The notes beneath the pieces are model-generated. The model was not told the origin of the DNA, did not search any database, and saw nothing but the letters and a program-made list of their open reading frames with translations. The position numbers and the translations under genes were made by a program. Shown here piece by piece: positions 5,253-54,552 of a stretch of DNA of 64,000 nucleotides. Source of the stretch: Escherichia coli (GTDB taxonomy: Bacteria; Pseudomonadota; Gammaproteobacteria; Enterobacterales; Enterobacteriaceae); the NCBI RefSeq assembly GCF_045037415.1, contig NZ_CP173438.1; one strand, given 5' to 3'. Every line of letters starts with the position of its first letter. The first letter of the stretch is position 1.

Positions 5253-7610
<2,358 letters not shown>

Positions 7611-7765
7611 ACCGCTCACGATGCGAGGCGGATCGAAAAATTCAATATTCATCACACTTTTCATGAAAATTCTGTAACCGTTTTCACGCGCTATCTGCTA
7701 AAAATGTTGCCGATGTGAAGTAAACATGGATGTAGTACGCCTGACGTGCCAGGCGAGGAGTGAGT

Positions 7766-8791
7766 GTGAAAGCGAAGAAGCAGGAAACTGCCGCGACCAT
7801 GAAAGACGTTGCCCTCAAGGCAAAAGTCTCTACAGCGACTGTCTCCCGAGCATTAATGAATCCCGATAAAGTCTCCCAGGCCACCCGTAATCGGGTTGAA
7901 AAAGCGGCCCGGGAAGTGGGTTATTTACCGCAGCCTATGGGGCGCAACGTCAAGCGTAATGAATCCCGCACCATTCTGGTGATTGTCCCGGATATCTGCG
8001 ACCCTTTCTTTAGCGAAATTATTCGCGGTATCGAAGTTACGGCGGCAAATCACGGATATCTGGTGCTGATTGGCGACTGTGCGCATCAAAATCAGCAGGA
8101 AAAAACCTTTATCGATTTGATCATCACCAAGCAAATTGATGGCATGTTGTTGCTGGGTTCAAGGCTGCCGTTTGATGCCAGCATTGAGGAACAGCGTAAT
8201 CTGCCGCCGATGGTGATGGCGAACGAATTTGCACCGGAACTGGAGCTGCCTACCGTTCATATCGACAATCTGACCGCCGCATTTGATGCAGTAAATTATT
8301 TATATGAGCAAGGGCATAAACGGATTGGCTGTATAGCCGGTCCCGAAGAGATGCCGCTGTGTCACTACCGCCTGCAAGGCTATGTTCAGGCGCTGCGTCG
8401 CTGCGGCATTATGGTTGATCCGCAATACATCGCCCGTGGCGACTTCACCTTCGAAGCCGGAAGCAGAGCAATGCAACAGCTGCTTGATCTTCCACAACCG
8501 CCTACTGCTGTCTTCTGCCATAGCGATGTGATGGCGCTCGGCGCACTTTCTCAGGCAAAACGTCAGGGGCTGAAAGTCCCGGAAGACCTTTCCATAATCG
8601 GTTTTGATAACATCGACCTGACGCAATTTTGTGATCCGCCGCTGACAACCATCGCGCAGCCGCGTTACGAAATCGGTCGGGAAGCTATGCTGTTATTGCT
8701 TGATCAAATGCAGGGGCAACACGTTGGCAGTGGCTCTCGTTTAATGGACTGCGAACTTATCATCCGGGGATCAACACGCGCGTTACCTTAA
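7766..8791 (+). CDS. cytR: LacI-family transcriptional repressor CytR
   Basis: N-terminal HTH (ATMKDVALKAKVSTATVSRAL) plus periplasmic-binding-protein-like effector domain; GTG start at 7766 gives 341 aa. Confidence 0.9.
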   Translation: MKAKKQETAATMKDVALKAKVSTATVSRALMNPDKVSQATRNRVEKAAREVGYLPQPMGRNVKRNESRTILVIVPDICDPFFSEIIRGIEVTAANHGYLVLIGDCAHQNQQEKTFIDLIITKQIDGMLLLGSRLPFDASIEEQRNLPPMVMANEFAPELELPTVHIDNLTAAFDAVNYLYEQGHKRIGCIAGPEEMPLCHYRLQGYVQALRRCGIMVDPQYIARGDFTFEAGSRAMQQLLDLPQPPTAVFCHSDVMALGALSQAKRQGLKVPEDLSIIGFDNIDLTQFCDPPLTTIAQPRYEIGREAMLLLLDQMQGQHVGSGSRLMDCELIIRGSTRALP

Positions 8792-8882
8792 AGTAAACCT
8801 TTAAGACTGCCGTGACTGGTCAAAGGCCCGCCGCTTAAGTAACATGGCGGGCTGACGAACGAATAAATACAGCGAAACGATA

Positions 8883-9842
8883 GTGGCACAACGAGATTAT
8901 GTACGCCGCAGCCAACCGGCACCTTCGCGGCGAAAAAAGAGCACCTCACGGAAAAAGCAACGAAATCTGCCTGCGGTTTCTCCCGCTATGGTCGCTATTG
9001 CTGCCGCCGTTCTTGTGACCTTTATCGGTGGTCTGTACTTCATTACGCATCACAAGAAAGAAGAGTCCGAGACGCTGCAAAGCCAGAAAGTGACCGGAAA
9101 CGGACTACCACCAAAACCAGAAGAACGCTGGCGCTACATTAAAGAGCTGGAAAGTCGCCAGCCGGGTGTGCGTGCGCCCACAGAACCTTCTGCCGGTGGT
9201 GAAGTGAAAACGCCGGAGCAACTGACACCAGAACAACGCCAGCTTCTTGAACAAATGCAGGCCGATATGCGCCAGCAGCCAACGCAGCTGGTTGAAGTTC
9301 CGTGGAATGAGCAGACGCCGGAACAGCGTCAGCAAACGCTACAGCGCCAGCGTCAGGCGCAGCAATTAGCGGAGCAGCAACGCCTGGCTCAGCAGTCGCG
9401 TACGACTGAACAAAGCTGGCAGCAGCAGACGCGTACGTCGCAAGCCGCGCCGGTACAGGCGCAACCGCGCCAGTCTAAACCGGCTTCTACTCAGCAGCCG
9501 TACCAGGATCTGCTGCAAACCCCTGCGCACACGACCGCGCAGTCGAAGCCGCAGCAAGCTGCGCCGGTTGCTCGTGCCGCTGACGCGCCAAAACCGACGG
9601 CGGAGAAAAAAGACGAACGCCGCTGGATGGTGCAGTGCGGTTCGTTCAGAGGCGCGGAACAGGCAGAGACGGTACGTGCTCAGCTGGCGTTCGAAGGCTT
9701 TGACTCAAAAATTACCACCAACAATGGCTGGAATCGTGTGGTGATTGGCCCGGTGAAAGGCAAAGAGAACGCAGACAGCACCCTCAATCGCTTGAAGATG
9801 GCGGGTCATACAAACTGCATTCGGCTCGCCGCCGGGGGTTGA
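8883..9842 (+). CDS. ftsN: cell division protein FtsN
   Basis: 319 aa, GTG start; short cytoplasmic tail, one TM helix, Gln/Pro-rich linker, C-terminal SPOR domain. Confidence 0.9.
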   Translation: MAQRDYVRRSQPAPSRRKKSTSRKKQRNLPAVSPAMVAIAAAVLVTFIGGLYFITHHKKEESETLQSQKVTGNGLPPKPEERWRYIKELESRQPGVRAPTEPSAGGEVKTPEQLTPEQRQLLEQMQADMRQQPTQLVEVPWNEQTPEQRQQTLQRQRQAQQLAEQQRLAQQSRTTEQSWQQQTRTSQAAPVQAQPRQSKPASTQQPYQDLLQTPAHTTAQSKPQQAAPVARAADAPKPTAEKKDERRWMVQCGSFRGAEQAETVRAQLAFEGFDSKITTNNGWNRVVIGPVKGKENADSTLNRLKMAGHTNCIRLAAGG

Positions 9843-46438: not shown

Positions 46439-47070
46439 AACGACGTGACACCATCGTGCGCTACACCGCGCCGGAACGTATCAACCACTGGATCACCGCC
46501 TTCTGCTTCATCCTGGCGGCGGTGAGCGGGCTGGGCTTTTTGTTCCCGTCCTTCAACTGGTTGATGCAAATCATGGGCACACCGCAGCTGGCGCGAATTC
46601 TGCATCCGTTTGTCGGCGTGGTTATGTTTGCCTCGTTCATCATCATGTTTTTCCGTTACTGGCATCACAACCTAATCAATCGGGATGATATCTTTTGGGC
46701 GAAGAATATTCGTAAGATCGTCGTCAACGAGGAAGTAGGTGACACCGGGCGTTATAACTTCGGTCAGAAATGCGTTTTCTGGGCGGCGATTATTTTCCTG
46801 GTCCTGTTGCTGGTGAGCGGCGTGATTATCTGGCGTCCTTATTTTGCGCCTGCTTTCTCAATCCCGGTGATCCGATTCGCGTTAATGCTGCATTCATTTG
46901 CCGCAGTGGCGTTAATTGTGGTTATCATGGTGCATATCTACGCCGCCCTTTGGGTGAAAGGCACGATTACCGCCATGGTGGAAGGATGGGTGACCAGCGC
47001 ATGGGCAAAGAAACATCACCCGCGCTGGTACCGTGAGGTCCGCAAGACAACGGAAAAGAAAGCTGAATGA
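46435..47070 (+). CDS. fdoI: formate dehydrogenase-O cytochrome b556 subunit
   Basis: 211-aa four-helix membrane protein with conserved His; 4-nt overlap with fdoH. Confidence 0.95.
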
Positions 47071-47996
47071 GTATTCGCATAATCCCGCAAGATGAGCTGG
47101 GTTCGAGCGAGAAACGTACGGCGGATATGATTCCGCCGTTATTGTTCCCTCGGCTCAAGAATTTATACAACCGCCGCGCCGAGCGTCTGCGCGAGCTGGC
47201 AGAACATAATCCGCTGGGTGATTACCTGCGCTTTGCTGCGCTTATCGCCCACGCCCAGGAAGTGGTGCTGTACGACCATCCGCTGGAGATGGATCTGACC
47301 ACGCGCATTAAAGAAGCCAGCGCACAAGGCAAGCCCCCGCTGGATATTCACGTTCTGCCGCGTGATAAGCACTGGCAAAAGCTGCTGATGGCGCTGATTG
47401 CTGAGCTGAAACCTGAAATGAGCGGCCCGGCGCTGGCAGTGATTGAGAATCTGGAGAAGGCATCGACTCAGGAGCTGGAAGATATGGCCAGCGCACTGTT
47501 TGCCTCTGATTTCTCGTCCGTCAGCAGCGATAAAGCGCCGTTTATCTGGGCTGCGCTGTCGCTCTACTGGGCGCAGATGGCTAATCTGATCCCCGGCAAA
47601 GCCCGCGCTGAATACGGCGAACAACGTCAATATTGCCCGGTATGTGGCTCTATGCCGGTGTCCAGCATGGTGCAAATTGGCACCACTCAGGGTCTGCGTT
47701 ACCTGCACTGCAACCTGTGTGAAACTGAATGGCACGTAGTGCGCGTAAAATGCAGCAACTGTGAACAGAGCGGCAAACTGCATTACTGGTCGCTGGATGA
47801 CGAACAGGCCGCGATTAAAGCCGAAAGCTGCGATGACTGCGGCACTTACCTGAAGATTCTTTATCAGGAAAAAGAACCGAAAGTTGAAGCCGTGGCAGAT
47901 GACCTCGCCTCTCTGGTACTGGACGCGCGAATGGAGCAAGAAGGCTATGCCCGTAGTTCCATCAACCCGTTCCTGTTTCCGGGTGAAGGGGAGTAA
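47067..47996 (+). CDS. fdhE: formate dehydrogenase maturation protein FdhE
   Basis: 309 aa; CPVCG...CNLCETEWH...CSNCEQ...CDDCGTYLK cysteine pairs. Confidence 0.93.
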
Positions 47997-48177
47997 TCTC
48001 TGACGTTTTCCGGGTGGCGCAGGTCGCCCGGATTACAGTTCATAGGGTGTGACGACACTATCTCTCGTATTCCGCGTTACCTCCTCAAGCTATGCCGCCA
48101 GTGCCTGTTTGGCCTCAATTTTCACGCTGAGAAAATCGATAAGGATATCGATATCAAATAGCCAAATCTTTTTGCCA

Positions 48178-48396
48178 TTACCATTTCTCGCGCAGCTTAC
48201 GCAGGTATTCGACACCATCTTCCTCACACCCTTGCCAGATGCCAGGAACACTGGTTCTTGCTGTTTGCGATTGATTTACCAGGTATTGATCTACCGCTTC
48301 CCGTAATAGGTCTGCACGCGGAAGATTACGCTGCACCTCAAGATCATCAAGTTGCTTAATCACCTCATTCGATAAATCGAGTAAAATTCTGCTCAT
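48178..48396 (-). CDS. ribbon-helix-helix (CopG-like) DNA-binding protein, yiiF-like
   Basis: [39 protein letters not shown] has the RHH beta-strand/helix pattern; 72 aa from the ATG at 48396 (alternative starts 48402, 48420); paralogous to the ORF at 50508-50726. Confidence 0.75.
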
Positions 48397-48510
48397 ATCC
48401 ATACCTGCCAGAGGGTTCATAAATATCTCGCCAATATCATTTTGAATCTATGGAGAGAAAAGTACCCTTGTCGAATCTTTAAAGAAAGCGCATTTACGCA
48501 TCACTTTTTA

Positions 48511-48556
48511 TTTTTGCGAGGCGTTTTCCAGATACGATGTAACAGTTGCAGTTATT
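48511..48556. promoter_or_regulatory. conserved promoter/operator-like motif, copy A
   Basis: TTTTTGCGAGGCGTTTTCCAGATACGATGTAACAGTTGCAGTTATT, recurring at 50820-50866 and in part at 52483-52504. Confidence 0.4.
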
Positions 48557-48709
48557 ACGAAAACCAGTAAAAAATGGAAGTGAAAACAGTCGTGTGAAAA
48601 TTTCTACTCTTTCTGAATTTACTCTATAAAGTTGCCTTTCTCACATCCAATAGCTTAATGTCATCTACCAAGAAAAAACGATAAGTCGTCAGGGAACGGA
48701 ACAGATATA

Positions 48710-49558
48710 ATGAATAAAAACGAATCAATTTCTTACACCGAAATGCAAAAATTTTTTGCCAGAGAAATTAAGGAAGTAGGCGGTAGGCCCATCACTTCTA
48801 AGAATTTAGAGTTAAGTCTGCTACCCATTCACGCCAGGGAAAACCTTTCTGCGCCAGAAATGCCGTGGTATACCGAAGTTAATGATATCTATATGGAGTT
48901 CAGACGCTCACCATTCTGGATGGTTGCCGGTTATGTATTCCTGGGATTTATGCTTTCACTACTTTCCATCTCGATATTATCTATTGTTGCATTCTCATTT
49001 TATGAGATGGGCTTTAATAGTGACTTGTTATTTCTGTATCTACTTGCATTTGTGCTTGGCTGTTTTATATTACCTGGCGCTGCAAAAATTGCTTTTTTCA
49101 CGCCACATTATCTTCCTATAAGATTTAACAGAAAAACACAAAAAATTTATGTTTCAGATTTAATTATTGAAGGCAATATCTTCTTTGGAAAAATAAAACT
49201 CACTTTTCATGAATATGACTGGAAAGATGTTGAAGGTTGGGAGGTGAGTAGACATTTCAGTAAAAGTATGCCTTACAATGGATTACATCTGGTAGTTAAT
49301 AGAGAAAATGATATAAATGCACTGCGACAGACACGCGTTTATACAACCCGTGCACCGTGGAGTGCACAAGAAATGGCAAGACAAAAGAACTATATCCCCC
49401 AAATATGGCTTTATTGCCATAATTATATGGCTTATAAAACTGTGTCTGGTGCAAAGAACAAACCACAACCATTTATTTTTTTAAGAAACAATTGGCTATT
49501 TAAATGGCCAAAAGAAATGGATAAACGTTCCAGAAGCTCAAAGATACTGTCTGAATAA
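48710..49558 (+). CDS. hypothetical membrane protein (two adjacent TM helices), unknown family
   Basis: 282-aa ORF in low-GC DNA (first 200 nt of the ORF about 38% GC by hand count); TM hairpin FWMVAGYVFLGFMLSLLSISILSIVAFSF / LLFLYLLAFVLGCFILPGAAKIAFF; purine-rich SD-like stretch upstream; no family recognised. Confidence 0.6.
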   Translation: MNKNESISYTEMQKFFAREIKEVGGRPITSKNLELSLLPIHARENLSAPEMPWYTEVNDIYMEFRRSPFWMVAGYVFLGFMLSLLSISILSIVAFSFYEMGFNSDLLFLYLLAFVLGCFILPGAAKIAFFTPHYLPIRFNRKTQKIYVSDLIIEGNIFFGKIKLTFHEYDWKDVEGWEVSRHFSKSMPYNGLHLVVNRENDINALRQTRVYTTRAPWSAQEMARQKNYIPQIWLYCHNYMAYKTVSGAKNKPQPFIFLRNNWLFKWPKEMDKRSRSSKILSE

Positions 49559-49582
49559 GCATAATAATGAAGGATTTCGACT

Positions 49583-50323
49583 ATGATTAACAAACTTACT
49601 CTTCCTTGGCCGGTATTATTTTTAGAATTTTTTGTGCGAGAAGTTGCCTTTAAGGGTAAGGGAATTGTTCGTTCTACATTACCAGCAGATGCCCATTTTT
49701 ATACCGGTGGGTCAAAAGCCCTGCGTTATCACCTACAACCAGGAAACCAATGGCCAAACTATATATGGCATGATGATATAGGTGATATTGTACCGTTTCC
49801 TCTACCCTCACTTCCGCTTACATTTACCGCTAACCGACCCACATTTAATTCCAGAGAATTAGCGGATAAATGGATGAAGGATAATATTCATACCGCTGTC
49901 ATCATGGCGGGGGAATTTCTGTCTGCTAATGAATGGATTCGCCGCAAAAACCAGCTTAAAACTAGTGTACACCCTGCGTCAGTTGCTTCTTTCGCACCCT
50001 ATGGCTTTAACATTAACCAGTGTGATGACGATGGCAATCTTTGGACTAATTTCCCACGTCCCCACATCAAATTAAAAATCGCACCAGGAAAAACAGCTTG
50101 TTTTCTCTGCCGCCGGGAAGAGCTTTTATTTGGTTATGATGAAGCACATAATCACTACCAGCCGAATCTTAATCTGGTTTTATTTGTGAAAAATCATGGG
50201 TTGCATAAGGATGTTTACCTAAAATCTCATGACGATAAAAGTGAATACGATAGCAGAATATTATGTAACGAAAAATTTACCACTTATGATTTCCGTAAAA
50301 ACCGGTCCAGATACAGCTTTTGA
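49583..50323 (+). CDS. hypothetical soluble protein, unknown family
   Basis: 246-aa ORF starting 24 nt after the upstream gene with a GAAGGA Shine-Dalgarno; AT-rich codon usage; no motif recognised. Confidence 0.6.
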   Translation: MINKLTLPWPVLFLEFFVREVAFKGKGIVRSTLPADAHFYTGGSKALRYHLQPGNQWPNYIWHDDIGDIVPFPLPSLPLTFTANRPTFNSRELADKWMKDNIHTAVIMAGEFLSANEWIRRKNQLKTSVHPASVASFAPYGFNINQCDDDGNLWTNFPRPHIKLKIAPGKTACFLCRREELLFGYDEAHNHYQPNLNLVLFVKNHGLHKDVYLKSHDDKSEYDSRILCNEKFTTYDFRKNRSRYSF

Positions 50324-50507
50324 TAGTTTATTATCCTGGATGATATCAGGAGCGATATCTATAAAGTTTATGCATTCCCTGTGATCAATTTTTCCTGTTA
50401 GTGAGCACAAATTCAATCTGATTGATGCCAGAATAAAGGCATCTGGCATGTTGATTTTATGTTCCAGAATGACAAAACATTGCTGTTAATAAGCACGACT
50501 CTTTTTG

Positions 50508-50726
50508 TCATTCCTCATGCCACTTACCCTGTTCTTCAACACCAACTACCTCACCCCTTTGCCTGTCACTTTTTGCCTTACGCACCGGAAATTGCTGACG
50601 CTCCAGATATTGCTCTACCGCTTCGCGTAAAATTGCAGAGCGCGAAACCTTACGCCAGCCCCGAAGCTTGTTCAGCCGTTTAATTGCCTCTTCTGATAAA
50701 TGAAGAAAAACCGTATTCATCGCCAT
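50508..50726 (-). CDS. ribbon-helix-helix (CopG-like) DNA-binding protein, yiiE-like
   Basis: MAMNTVFLHLSEEAIKRLNKLRGWRKVSRSAILREAVEQYL; 72 aa from the ATG at 50726 (alternatives 50720, 50753). Confidence 0.75.
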   Translation of the reverse strand: MAMNTVFLHLSEEAIKRLNKLRGWRKVSRSAILREAVEQYLERQQFPVRKAKSDRQRGEVVGVEEQGKWHEE

Positions 50727-50819
50727 TGCCACCACCTTACATATATTACTCATTAATGTATGTGCGAAAATTACGCCGAAAAATCATTTAAAAAAAGCGG
50801 ATTTTTGCATGTCGTTTTG

Positions 50820-50866
50820 TTTTTGCGAGACTGCATCCAAAGATAATGTAACAGTTGCAGTTATTT
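50820..50866. promoter_or_regulatory. conserved promoter/operator-like motif, copy B
   Basis: TTTTTGCGAGACTGCATCCAAAGATAATGTAACAGTTGCAGTTATTT; shares TTTTTGCGAG and ATGTAACAGTTGCAGTTATT with copy A. Confidence 0.4.
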
Positions 50867-51122
50867 CAATTGTTACTCAAAAATGGTTTATTACTTTTAA
50901 TTAAGCGGGGGCACATCTACAGAAAAGAAACAACAAATAATAAGGATGAATTATGGATGCTATAAATATTTTATATTCAAGAATATTTTTTTGATTGGGT
51001 CTTCATTTGCTTCATCAGGATGGTGTACCCGAAAAAGTCAGCAGCTTTACCGCACCAGGGGTTAAGGTGAAATCTACCATTCATAACGACCGGTCAGTGC
51101 CGCACCAACCGGTCTTTAATTG

Positions 51123-51401
51123 TTAGTAGTAGTAAATTTGTGGATAACAGTCCGGGAACCAGACGATTCCTTCCGGATCATCCCCCTGCATTACCCGATG
51201 ACATTGGCGTCGATCATCTGCGCGACGGCGAAGCGTAGTATAGAGCCGCTTCCATTCATGATCGCCCGGTGTACTGTAGTTTACCCAACAATCCATTGAA
51301 GGGTGACGCCATTTACCTGTAAGTGTTGGGATCCCTGAATGCTTATGCGGCTTCGCTTTACCATTACGATCCCTATCTTTACGCGTATTAAACGTGGACA
51401 T
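51123..51401 (-). CDS. hypothetical small basic Cys/His-rich protein
   Basis: 92-aa ORF; no recognisable family; may be a fragment. Confidence 0.3.
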   Translation of the reverse strand: MSTFNTRKDRDRNGKAKPHKHSGIPTLTGKWRHPSMDCWVNYSTPGDHEWKRLYTTLRRRADDRRQCHRVMQGDDPEGIVWFPDCYPQIYYY

Positions 51402-51462
51402 TTTTAGTCTCCTGTTAAGAGTTCTAAAAATGTGCTTCCTTAAAATAGTTCATCATTTTCCC

Positions 51463-51675
51463 TTAATTCGCATAGCGTGCTTTTGCACGAATTTCCGATA
51501 CGCGGGGACCATTATGATAGCGTCGATGCCCACACATCCAACAAGAACAAATACAGGGAGTACGAAAGCAAATACCTGATGCTTTTTTGCTTCCATCGCC
51601 TGCAGTGCGATAACGACAGCGGATTTTTTTTAATCGCACCATATGATGGCGACGTTCAGCACGATTACGGGTCAT
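51463..51675 (-). CDS. hypothetical small basic Cys-rich protein (possible zinc ribbon)
   Basis: 70-aa ORF with CxC...CxxC spacing (CICSCWMCGH); no recognisable family. Confidence 0.3.
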   Translation of the reverse strand: MTRNRAERRHHMVRLKKIRCRYRTAGDGSKKASGICFRTPCICSCWMCGHRRYHNGPRVSEIRAKARYAN

Positions 51676-51759
51676 AGCAAAACTCCTGAACAGGCGGCAC
51701 TATGCCGCTTTCATAGGAGTTCTGAATGCTGGTGCTTTCTGTATGGCATAACCATGCCT

Positions 51760-52050
51760 CTAACGGTTAAGTGCTTGCAGCACATGTTGCGGATCATTGG
51801 CAATCGCTCGCAGCAAAGCCTTTGCAGGCCCGGTCGGTGAACGTCGCCCCTGCTCCCAGTTACGCAACGTGTCTACGCTTACGGAAATAAGATCGGCAAA
51901 TTTAGATTGTGACAACCCTGAAGCGCGGCGTATTTCTTTGATTTTCATAGCATCAACTTCAAAAGTCCGTGAAGGCTGTCGCGTTCCTTCAATAATTTCA
52001 TTCATCTGGGCCATGCTGTGAGTCAACCGCTCAAAAAGTGCCTTATCCAT
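51760..52050 (-). CDS. HTH (XRE-type) antitoxin, HigA-like
   Basis: 96 aa; helix-turn-helix IRRASGLSQSKFADLISVSVDTLRNWEQGRR; ATG directly abuts the upstream toxin stop (TAA-ATG). Confidence 0.75.
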   Translation of the reverse strand: MDKALFERLTHSMAQMNEIIEGTRQPSRTFEVDAMKIKEIRRASGLSQSKFADLISVSVDTLRNWEQGRRSPTGPAKALLRAIANDPQHVLQALNR

Positions 52051-52362
52051 TTACCACCTCGTATTTAACAACCGGAGCATTGCTTTTTCCTGGGGAGACA
52101 GATCATCTTTAATACCCTTACGATAAATAAGCAGTAATCTGATCTCATAATGTTTAACCTGATGAAAGTAAATAACCCTGACACCAGCACGTTTCCCCTT
52201 TCCTCCTGAGACCCATCGAACCTTTCTTAACCCACCAGTTTCAGGTATTACCTCACCATAGTCAGGATTCAAGGCCAGGAAAAACTGAAAACGACTGAAT
52301 TCATCGTCGTTCAGCAGTTTTTGAACATCTTCAGTAAAAATTTCCGTTTCGATGAAGAGCAT
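52051..52362 (-). CDS. RelE/ParE-superfamily toxin, HigB-like (toxin-first arrangement)
   Basis: 103 aa, MLFIETEIFTEDVQKLLNDDEF...GGLRKVRW...GVRVIYFH...IRLLLIYRKG; size, basic patches and coupling to a downstream HTH partner. Confidence 0.7.
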   Translation of the reverse strand: MLFIETEIFTEDVQKLLNDDEFSRFQFFLALNPDYGEVIPETGGLRKVRWVSGGKGKRAGVRVIYFHQVKHYEIRLLLIYRKGIKDDLSPQEKAMLRLLNTRW

Positions 52363-52482
52363 AATTATACGCCATTGGCTTAGAGCAACAATCCTTTTTG
52401 TACGTCATTGACGTACCATTGAAACCACTAGCTTACTGATAGTGCTCCAGCAAAACCACGTCTCTGCCGGGTTTGTCTTTAC

Positions 52483-52504
52483 ATTTGCGAGGCGCTTTCC
52501 AGAT
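52483..52504. promoter_or_regulatory. conserved promoter/operator-like motif, partial copy C
   Basis: ATTTGCGAGGCGCTTTCCAGAT, one mismatch to the first half of copy A. Confidence 0.35.
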
Positions 52505-52578
52505 TTTTCACGCCCGTGAATTTCCCTGTATCCATCCAGCAAAAACGGGTGTATAAAACTGTACATTCATACAGCAAA

Positions 52579-53499
52579 ATGAGTTCTACTATGGCACTGG
52601 AAAAAGGAATTGCAGAGTTAGTCGAAGAGTTTATCGCTGCGGGTCGCCCCTCATCGCGCCAACAAAGTATTACGCAGCGCAGAGAGGGCTATATCGCCAG
52701 CGCTGTCCTTGCGGGTGAGACAGAAACGCGGGTAGATATTCAGACTATCGAACTTGAAGGGATGACCTTACGAATAGTGTCACCGCTGAATGCCCCGACA
52801 TTACTCCCGACGATAATTTATTACTACGGTGGCTGTTTTGTTAGCGGCGGGTTCGCAACTCACGACAACCAGCTGCGCCAGTTAGCCTATTACGGGCAAT
52901 GTCGGGTTATTGCCGTCCAGTATCGGCTGGCACCGGAACATACTTTCCCCGCCGCCCATGATGATGCACAACGAGGTGCAGAATTAGTCCGGCAACACGC
53001 CGAACGACTCGGCGTTGATAAACAACGAATAACTCTTGCCGGTGACAGTGCGGGAGGGCATCTGGCGCTGGTAACTGCTTTGCGATTGAAGCGTGCTGGC
53101 GAGTGGCAACCAGCACAACTCATCTTAATTTATCCTATGCTTGATGCGACTGCGCATTTCGAAAGCTACATACGCAATGGTCACGATTACATCATCACAC
53201 GCGACACTTTACTGAGCGGCTTTGAGATGTACCTGCCAGGCATTGAACGCAGGCATCCTGAAGCCAGCCCTATTTGGCGCAATGATTTCAATGGCTTGCC
53301 ACCTGTACATATCATTACCGCTGAATACGACCCACTTTGCGATGAAGGTGAAGCGTTGTATCACCGCATGACAGGGCAAGGAGTGCAATGCACCTGCCAA
53401 CGCTACCTTGGCGTTATCCACGGATTTTTTCAGTTAGGTGGTATCAGTGAGGCTGCGCGATCGGCGTTACGGGATGTTGCCTGGAGAGCGGGAAGGTAA
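52579..53499 (+). CDS. alpha/beta-hydrolase-fold esterase/lipase
   Basis: oxyanion-hole region YYYGGCF and nucleophile elbow GDSAGG; ORF track starts at a GTG (52516) inside the conserved motif, ATG at 52579 or 52591 preferred. Confidence 0.7.
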   Translation: MSSTMALEKGIAELVEEFIAAGRPSSRQQSITQRREGYIASAVLAGETETRVDIQTIELEGMTLRIVSPLNAPTLLPTIIYYYGGCFVSGGFATHDNQLRQLAYYGQCRVIAVQYRLAPEHTFPAAHDDAQRGAELVRQHAERLGVDKQRITLAGDSAGGHLALVTALRLKRAGEWQPAQLILIYPMLDATAHFESYIRNGHDYIITRDTLLSGFEMYLPGIERRHPEASPIWRNDFNGLPPVHIITAEYDPLCDEGEALYHRMTGQGVQCTCQRYLGVIHGFFQLGGISEAARSALRDVAWRAGR

Positions 53500-53562
53500 C
53501 TCCGGACCAGGGCCCAGAAAAGGTTTTCAGATTGAAAACCTTTTCAGTCAAGTAAAACGCCC

Positions 53563-54552
53563 CTACTCTTCTTCGTTCCCGCCCTCTTCATACGGGCCAA
53601 ATGGCTTCGCGGGCAGAACGATATACGTGCCTTCAAACACTGCACCCGGCGTCTCGTCGCCAAAGATTTCTACTTGCATCTGCACCCGTGCTTTTCGTCC
53701 GCGCGCCAGACGGTCGAGATCGCCACTTAAGGCACCAAGGTCGGCTACCGCATGGGGTTTTCCGCTAATCGGCTTGCTGTAGCGGATATGCGCATCCGCC
53801 AGAATAATCGTTCCGCCGAGGTGGCGTTCGCGCAGCATCAGCCAGATAAGCCCCCAACCGGTGAGCGTAGCCAGCGAGAATAAACTCCCGGCAAACAGCG
53901 TGTGATGCGGATTCTGATTGCCGGTTTCCGGCATGGTGGTGATAAATTTTTGCCCGGTATATTGCTGAATGCGCACACCCATTTTTTCGCTTAACGGGAT
54001 ATGTTCATACCACGCTTGCTGGAGCTGGGCGCACCAGTCGCCGCGATGAAGAATATCATCCAGAGTGGCGACGGGTTTAATCATCAGAAAATGGCGAATC
54101 GGCGTGGTGGTTGGCGTGGTGATTTCACCCTGATTAACAAACCCCAGCTTGGCGAAAAACTCCACCGCGTCTTCACGGGCGCTACAGGTCACGCGCTTAA
54201 CGCCTTCCTGACGTGCCACCGACTCCAGGGTCATCGCCATCAGCGTGCCTAACCCTTTGTCCTGCACGTCGGGATGAACGGCCATAAAGCGAATGGACGC
54301 TTCATTGTCGGCATTAATATACAGTCGGCCTACCGCTACCAGATTACCCTGCTCGTCGACGACCATCTGGTGATGCGCCATCGCATCCCACGCGTCGCGT
54401 TCCGAACCTTTTGGTTGATGCAGGGGCTTACGCAACATTTCCCAGCGAAACTGATAGTAACGCTCTAATTCTTCTTCTGTTTGTGGAACCCGAAGGTGAT
54501 ACATAGCGATACTCTCTCTTGTTTCCCGTGACAACCCTGGAAGCTGGCTCAT
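53563..54552 (-). CDS. yiiD: GNAT acetyltransferase / hotdog-fold fusion protein YiiD (FabY)
   Basis: 329 aa; N-terminal GNAT region and C-terminal thioesterase-like region. Confidence 0.88.

Follow-up and report, generated by a model that had tools for sequence, protein, structure and literature searches.

Between two paralogous ribbon-helix-helix (RHH) regulator genes of Escherichia coli, yiiF-like and yiiE-like, a 64,000-nucleotide stretch of DNA (assembly GCF_045037415.1, contig NZ_CP173438.1; hereafter the window) carries an AT-rich insert with two open reading frames, ORF1 for a 282-aa membrane protein and ORF2 for a 246-aa soluble protein. Do these two genes work together, as an effector/immunity, abortive-infection or other defence-type module, as was speculated in the original prediction made from the DNA sequence alone, or do they simply lie side by side? 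The explanation that we favour, with a probability of roughly 0.6, is that the insert consists of two independent accessory cargo genes at a hotspot of recombination that lies between fdhE and fabY/yiiD, ORF1 being an orphan immunity gene that belongs to the DUF6708 family, and that it is not a two-component system.

ORF1 and the DUF6708 genes beside type VI secretion effectors

ORF1 matches the Pfam family DUF6708 (PF20455) over residues 124-247 with an E-value of 2.6e-14 (53.9 bits), and RefSeq labels it a DUF6708 domain-containing protein. The initial statement that neither protein belonged to a recognisable family was thus wrong for ORF1; it proved right for ORF2. Searches of PADLOC, NCBIfam and PHROGs with ORF1 and ORF2 gave nothing but one non-significant PHROG match. 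The Kyte-Doolittle profile of ORF1 contains one hydrophobic block (residues 67-132), and in the AlphaFold2 (AF2) model this block corresponds to two helices, 75-100 and 104-129, in agreement with the two-helix transmembrane (TM) hairpin noticed at the outset. The hairpin (residues ~75-129) splits a PH-like beta domain in the model. The net charge after the second TM helix is +4, and that of the acidic loop between the helices is -2. ORF1 is predicted to be an inner-membrane protein of N-in/C-in topology, with both soluble parts in the cytoplasm.

The relatives of ORF1 were found in an informative genetic context. A DUF6708 profile search returned many proteins from Orbaceae. In Orbus wheelerorum, the gene order is VgrG, a 306-aa gene, a gene for a 1407-aa VasX_N protein and then five DUF6708 genes. 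In Gilliamella, a 309-aa gene and a gene for a 1318-aa VasX_N protein are followed by eleven DUF6708 genes, and the array comes immediately after this VgrG-adaptor-VasX_N effector cassette. A third array was present on an Enterobacteriaceae megaplasmid, where tssH, vgrG, a 290-aa gene and a gene for a 1020-aa protein precede nine tandem genes, with tssM downstream; this array lies inside a complete type VI secretion system (T6SS) cluster. When compared with the NCBIfam model NF041559 (BTH_I2691 family), the three large effectors scored 372.6, 163.6 and 128.7 bits, two of them above the curated cut-off of 150 bits, and 16 of the 17 array genes that were aligned match DUF6708. The homology of ORF1 to these effector-linked genes is full-length: a profile of the orphan subfamily (ORF1 and its close relatives) was aligned by hhalign with a profile of the 17 array genes from the three effector loci over 224 columns (99.3%, E-value of 3.3e-20), the two profiles having no sequences in common.

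The position of these genes agrees with what has been published on the same family. In Stenotrophomonas rhizophila, the DUF6708 protein Tsi3a is annotated as the putative immunity protein of the MIX/BTH_I2691 effector Tse3 (PMC13340143; bioRxiv 10.1101/2023.07.21.549874). The run of Tsi3a-homologous genes in this organism is given as 12 genes, tsi3b-j, in one account (PMC13340143) and as 8 duplications in the other (bioRxiv 10.1101/2023.07.21.549874). The BTH_I2691 toxins VasX, Tke5, Ptx2 and Bte2 form pores and depolarise the inner membrane; the proteins that confer immunity to them reside in this membrane too, and Tki5 was co-purified with Tke5 from membranes (PMC13133200). The most plausible reading of ORF1 is that of an inner-membrane immunity gene left as an orphan, a homolog of those that go with BTH_I2691/VasX-type T6SS effectors.

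In the carrier genome, the annotation within 50 kb of the insert comprises housekeeping genes only and no gene of a T6SS, and for this reason ORF1 is read as an orphan. It does not lie directly downstream of a VgrG-adaptor-BTH_I2691 effector cassette, its neighbours being the yiiF-like gene, ORF2 and the yiiE-like gene. The role in conflict or defence that had been proposed therefore stands in so far as ORF1 belongs to a family found at the immunity position of BTH_I2691/VasX-type effectors, but an effector/immunity module is not what the insert contains: it has a stray gene of the immunity type and no effector gene. Close relatives of ORF1 occur, all of them as orphans, at the fdhE-fabY locus of E. 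albertii, between housekeeping genes in Buttiauxella and in an integrase-bearing island. Leminorella grimontii also has an orphan protein of the DUF6708 family with 38% identity to ORF1, which is not beside either of the two ORF2 paralogs of this species in the loci seen. The chaperone-effector-immunity system published for UMN026 was set aside as a different one, whose immunity protein is a lipoprotein.

How could such a protein act? BTH_I2691-type toxins are delivered by a T6SS, insert in the inner membrane of the target, open ion-conducting pores and depolarise the cell. ORF1 would be anchored in the same membrane by its helical hairpin, with the split PH-like domain facing the cytoplasm. 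By analogy with Tki5 and Tke5, it may bind the TM region of the incoming toxin within the bilayer and block pore formation, and may in this way protect a toxin-less cell from the attack of its neighbours. If ORF1 does protect, the lineage that makes up about 10% of the complete E. coli genomes would resist VasX/BTH_I2691-type pore formers that it does not make, and might for this reason compete differently with gut bacteria armed with a T6SS. As a single gene, ORF1 would offer a convenient case for asking whether DUF6708 proteins confer immunity.

ORF2 and the independence of the two genes

In the window, ORF1 and ORF2 are probably co-transcribed, since the gap between these two co-oriented genes is short (24 bp), an AAGGA motif precedes the start of ORF2 by 8 nt and a search for terminator-like sites between them found none; this does not imply a joint function. 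The same arrangement would suit an anti-phage or abortive-infection system in which ORF2 senses and ORF1 executes, possibly under the control of the RHH protein. Such a system could also be expected in a low-GC variable locus near an antitoxin-like NadS gene and divergent from an RHH gene across a repeat-bearing shared region, and the ORF1 homolog of the integrase-bearing island does have SIR2- and WYL-domain genes as neighbours. However, outside the Escherichia fdhE-fabY locus, homologs of ORF1 and ORF2 were never neighbours in the contexts examined. ORF1 homologs were found without ORF2 in E. albertii, in Buttiauxella and in the integrase-bearing island, and ORF2 homologs without any DUF6708 gene at about 17 other loci, so that no co-occurrence across unrelated genomes was seen. 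Because each gene is found without the other in other genomes, the functional pair of a membrane and a soluble protein, as first proposed, is unsupported. Neither does phage defence find support, as PADLOC-DB v2 yielded no family for ORF1, ORF2 or ten ORF2 homologs, PHROGs no meaningful match and a viral-contig scan no contig with ORF2, whereas the ORF1 family has a clear T6SS effector-linked context. We consider a two-gene defence system very unlikely, and return to two independent cargo genes.

ORF2 belongs to a rare family. No hydrophobic segment is present in its Kyte-Doolittle profile, consistent with the soluble protein originally described. Only 29 clusters of ORF2-like proteins were found among 5.8 billion proteins, and a scan of about 100,000 species representatives gave only 12 loci. 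The family occurs in Enterobacterales (Escherichia, Leminorella, Limnobaculum, Providencia and Proteus) and in Bacteroidota, including Chitinophaga, Saprospiraceae, Haliscomenobacter, Dysgonomonas and Prevotella. Across both groups, at about 32% identity, 31 columns are invariant. The conserved motifs are PVLFLEFFVRE, FYTGxSKA, FLCRxEE, PNxNLVLFVKNHG and DFRKSR, and the clustered polar residues R19, E20, S44, E111, R177, E179, N197, K203, N204, D236, R238 and K239 are all invariant. Ten diverse homologs gave no match in PADLOC or NCBIfam, a sequence profile search of the PDB with ORF2 returned nothing, and no fold match was found for its confident AF2 model. ORF2 is thus one of the uncommon E. 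coli proteins for which the libraries searched contain no family and a confident model shows no known fold, and this makes it a reasonable target for functional work.

The genomic contexts of ORF2 homologs are mostly those of a solitary, horizontally moving gene. Leminorella and Limnobaculum have a single homolog between suhB and a GDPD gene, Providencia has one between tyrB and uvrA, and one Bacteroidota genome has one between tsaD and an M48 peptidase gene. A paralog with 36% identity to ORF2 is present in two of the 5426 complete E. coli genomes that formed our survey set, where it is inserted alone between rpoS and the gene of a MarR-family regulator. These two genomes are NZ_CP134663.1 (locus 7001-7732), a 4.9-Mb 'plasmid' of PLSDB that is evidently a chromosome, and NZ_CP062824.1. 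At the fdhE hotspot of another enterobacterium, an ORF2 homolog stands behind two different small genes. The species-representative scan also contained the two ORF2 paralogs of Leminorella grimontii. A protein 100% identical to E. coli ORF2 is encoded on UQCR01000230.1, a 2.7-kb contig in a metagenome-assembled genome (MAG) of 'uncultured Robinsoniella sp.'; this copy is probably a binning contaminant from E. coli.

In Chitinophagales and Saprospiraceae, ORF2 homologs are found within co-oriented runs of small genes. DUF4279-like genes are beside them in three loci and a DUF1963 gene in Chitinophaga, most other neighbours having no family. DUF4279 has been described as the FdL-Imm5 immunity family (PMC9424270) and as the partner of an Rhs-Ntox33 toxin (PMC13304343). 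These runs weakly suggest that ORF2 may be an orphan immunity-type protein as well, unrelated to ORF1 and directed against a toxin acting in the cytoplasm; this is our leading guess for ORF2, and a weak one. One Chitinophagales MAG (L023) encodes, at 7616-8770, a 384-aa fusion of two domain families that occur separately beside Bacteroidota ORF2 homologs, one at L023 9070-9795 and L025 8814-9518, the other, DUF4279-like, at L023 9848-10618 and L024 8756-9490. The fusion is reminiscent of poly-immunity loci.

Alternatively, ORF2 may be an accessory enzyme or small-molecule-binding protein that has no part in interbacterial conflict and is beside ORF1 by chance. This would fit the invariant columns with clustered polar residues in two phyla, the confident predicted globular fold and the occurrence of single homologs among housekeeping genes (suhB-GDPD, tyrB-uvrA, tsaD-M48 and beside rpoS). 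On the other hand, the searches revealed no resemblance to an enzyme family or a solved fold; the family is very scarce and patchily distributed, has low GC, sits at hotspots and recurs beside immunity-type families in Bacteroidota. We hold this alternative to be possible, if doubtful. Somewhat less credit is given to two bolder proposals taken together: that ORF2 founds a new family with a fold absent from the PDB, exchanged horizontally between Enterobacterales and Bacteroidota and serving as a stand-alone immunity protein against a widespread cytoplasmic toxin or as a single-gene phage defence, or that ORF1 and ORF2, controlled by the divergent YiiF-like RHH protein, were co-opted as a unit in one clonal E. 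coli lineage.

The insert and its apparent turnover in Escherichia

The coordinates of the insert and its surroundings are given in the table below. The insert announced by the original prediction is real, but slightly narrower than the 48397-50507 proposed. Homology to K-12 and E09 ends at 48557 and restarts at 50502 by blastn, and local alignment carries the right flank common to E09 and K-12 back from the blastn boundary at 50501 to 50421. The left edge comes directly after the motif ATGTAACAGTTGCAGTTATT, at the end of a 100-nt repeat, and the right edge is at a hairpin downstream of the yiiE-like gene.

Features of the insert and its flanks (window coordinates)
Feature	Position	Strand	Basis or remark
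Low-GC inserted DNA, ~1.86 kb	48558..50420	none	comparison with E. coli genomes in which yiiF and yiiE are adjacent; blastn, local alignment, GC
ORF1, 282-aa DUF6708 protein, predicted inner-membrane	48710..49558	+	PF20455 match, TM hairpin
ORF2, 246-aa soluble protein of a rare unannotated family	49583..50323	+	conserved motifs
yiiF-like RHH (CopG family) gene, divergent from ORF1	48178..48420	-	conserved flank outside the insert
yiiE-like RHH (CopG family) gene	50508..50753	-	conserved flank; RefSeq coding sequence shorter (219 nt, 50508-50726)
100-nt direct repeat, left copy, upstream of yiiF-like	48478..48577		repeat search
100-nt direct repeat, right copy, upstream of yiiE-like	50787..50886		repeat search, reciprocal blastn matches

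The AT-richness noted at first sight was confirmed. The insert has a GC content of 37.3%, against 51.0% for the whole window and 54.7% for fdoGHI-fdhE; the sliding value is 0.35-0.43 over 48400-50400 and 0.50-0.60 in the upstream fdo operon, and the GC content at third codon positions is 0.32 in one ORF and 0.34 in the other, compared with 0.62-0.68 in the fdo genes. No ORF for an integrase or transposase is present in 48000-51000, no target duplication flanks the insert, the sole long repeat detected by the repeat search being the paralogous upstream region of the RHH genes, and no Rfam family was detected in 47000-54000. The insert thus has the composition of foreign DNA and does not show the marks of a mobile island (an integrase or transposase, direct repeats or att sites).

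The initial statement that yiiE and yiiF are adjacent in K-12 was correct: the insert is absent from MG1655, where yiiF directly adjoins yiiE with nothing between them. In the survey set, the full insert was present in 564 of the 5426 genomes, about a tenth. The insert, low in GC and missing from K-12 as well as from about 90% of the complete genomes of E. coli, is horizontally acquired, as had been proposed. ORF1 is present as one copy per genome, with at least 99% identity, in all 564 carriers. No ORF1 paralog elsewhere in E. coli was detected by blastn (word size 11) beyond these 564 copies, and ORF1 does not form a tandem array of paralogs. Among the carriers are strains 81009, H105 and SaT040, which we take to belong to ST131. 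Other strain variants have the yiiF-like gene and yiiE without the insert, or yiiE alone.

The content of the fdhE-fabY interval differs among K-12, E09, M16807, E. albertii and two other Escherichia-like genomes. In E. albertii, the yiiF-like gene (86% nucleotide identity) is followed by an ORF2 fragment and then by a DUF6708 gene. The fragment is an internal remnant of 147 bp with 90% identity (locus 9613-9759, equivalent to window 49725-49871), and the DUF6708 gene, whose product is 60% identical to ORF1, lies on the opposite side of this remnant as compared with the E. coli order. The reversed order suggests that one cassette replaced another at the hotspot, and the history of the locus as a whole looks like cassette turnover. 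In Escherichia sp. MOD1-EC7003, only the first ~45 codons of ORF2 are kept, joined to translated REP-like (repetitive extragenic palindromic) repeats. The resulting 421-aa ORF (locus 7968-9233) consists of the ORF2 start followed by six or seven tandem REP-like repeats, translated as ...CGVHALSGLQNS...; its interpretation as a polymorphic toxin was rejected because everything after the ORF2 start is a translated repeat, and it is simply a disrupted ORF2. At the same hotspot, two Escherichia-like genomes (L005 5141-6259 and L027, MOD1-EC7003, 6849-7966) contain, upstream of the ORF2 homolog, two small genes that form a conserved pair. The first encodes a 178-aa protein that is hydrophobic at its N- and C-termini, the second a soluble protein of 151-175 aa, and neither has an identifiable Pfam family.

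Is the insert, then, a functionless, decaying relic that hitch-hiked in a successful clone and is kept by clonal descent only? The near-identical single copies of ORF1 in the 564 carriers indicate a clonal distribution. Several carriers (e.g. NZ_OZ369365.1 and NZ_CM190134.1) have an IS1 element inside the insert, within ORF1 in several genomes, and in strain Esc30 ORF1 is split in two. Shortened forms of ORF1 (49-182 aa) and ORF2 (105-150 aa) are recorded in E. coli and E. fergusonii, and the remnants in E. albertii and MOD1-EC7003 point in the same direction. Against this, the window and most carriers have intact copies of both ORFs, and the strong conservation of motifs over large distances in both families implies purifying selection at the family level; such patchy gain and loss is in any case expected of orphan immunity genes. 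A mere relic appears unlikely to us, and we keep to the view of two independent accessory cargo genes.

The flanking RHH genes are paralogs, as originally stated; their products are 38% identical (E-value of 1e-12), and both are annotated as CopG-family regulators in RefSeq. The two copies of the direct repeat, one 5' of each RHH gene, are 74% identical over 100 nt, and the repeat contains the motif that marks the left edge of the insert. Since the insert starts directly after this motif, ORF1-ORF2 is divergent from the yiiF-like gene across a 290-bp region that is common to both. The 100-nt repeat is a candidate shared operator or promoter stemming from the yiiF/yiiE duplication. A literature search on yiiE and yiiF, and on the RefSeq accessions of the ORF1 and ORF2 proteins, found nothing relevant.

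A second variable segment is located just downstream of the insert, at window positions 51123-53499. It contains a 92-aa hypothetical gene, a 103-aa gene without family followed by a NadS-family helix-turn-helix gene, and a gene for an alpha/beta hydrolase of the hormone-sensitive-lipase type. The NadS-family gene scores 60.7 bits (cut-off 60) and forms a toxin-antitoxin-like pair with the preceding 103-aa gene. K-12 has only a pseudogene remnant at this segment, and the whole fdhE-fabY interval is therefore a mosaic.

Weight of the evidence and comparison with known systems

Several observations weigh against the favoured explanation. The immunity function of DUF6708 proteins is predicted from gene position. 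ORF1 is only about 22% identical to the effector-linked members of the family, and every context of the close ORF1 subfamily that was examined is orphan. No DNA related to the Kacie_13 BTH_I2691 effector was found in complete E. coli genomes, in a search that detects relatives of ~65-70% nucleotide identity or more. The shortened and IS1-interrupted copies of both genes fit relaxed selection. As for ORF2, a Pfam search with all 29 family members gave nothing, including no Imm-type family, no toxin was seen beside an ORF2 homolog in the ~17 contexts examined, and the many polar residues that are invariant across two phyla are more suggestive of an enzyme or a ligand-binding site than of an ordinary immunity protein.

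In Vibrio cholerae and Bacteroidales, both orphan immunity genes and acquired clusters for interbacterial defence are known. The insert differs from these clusters in having one recognisable immunity-family gene, no recombinase and no array. It resembles them in the lack of a cognate effector, in horizontal acquisition, in patchy spread and in its location at a variable locus. As orphan immunity genes and hotspot cargo are both well known, current concepts are left unchanged by our results.

Compared with the Tsi3a-type DUF6708 genes of S. rhizophila, ORF1 is a single copy in a housekeeping region, with no VgrG, adaptor or effector gene nearby and with the low identity given above. It nevertheless shares with them the Pfam match, the full-length homology to array genes and a length of ~275-285 aa. 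Like the DUF6708 array genes, it has a beta domain after its TM hairpin and carries the motifs NDxYxE, LPIRFNRKTQKxY, DWxDV and WPxxM. The validated membrane immunity proteins of BTH_I2691 toxins, TsiV2 of V. cholerae, Tki5 of Pseudomonas putida and Pti2 of P. aeruginosa, are compared here with ORF1 only for the mode of action expected of it, in which a protein of the inner membrane binds a pore-forming, depolarising T6SS toxin directly within the membrane and so neutralises it (PMC13133200). In its architecture, ORF1 can also be compared with the eukaryotic membrane chaperone EROS/CYBC1 (PDB 8kei_D), in which a PH domain is likewise interrupted by two TM helices.

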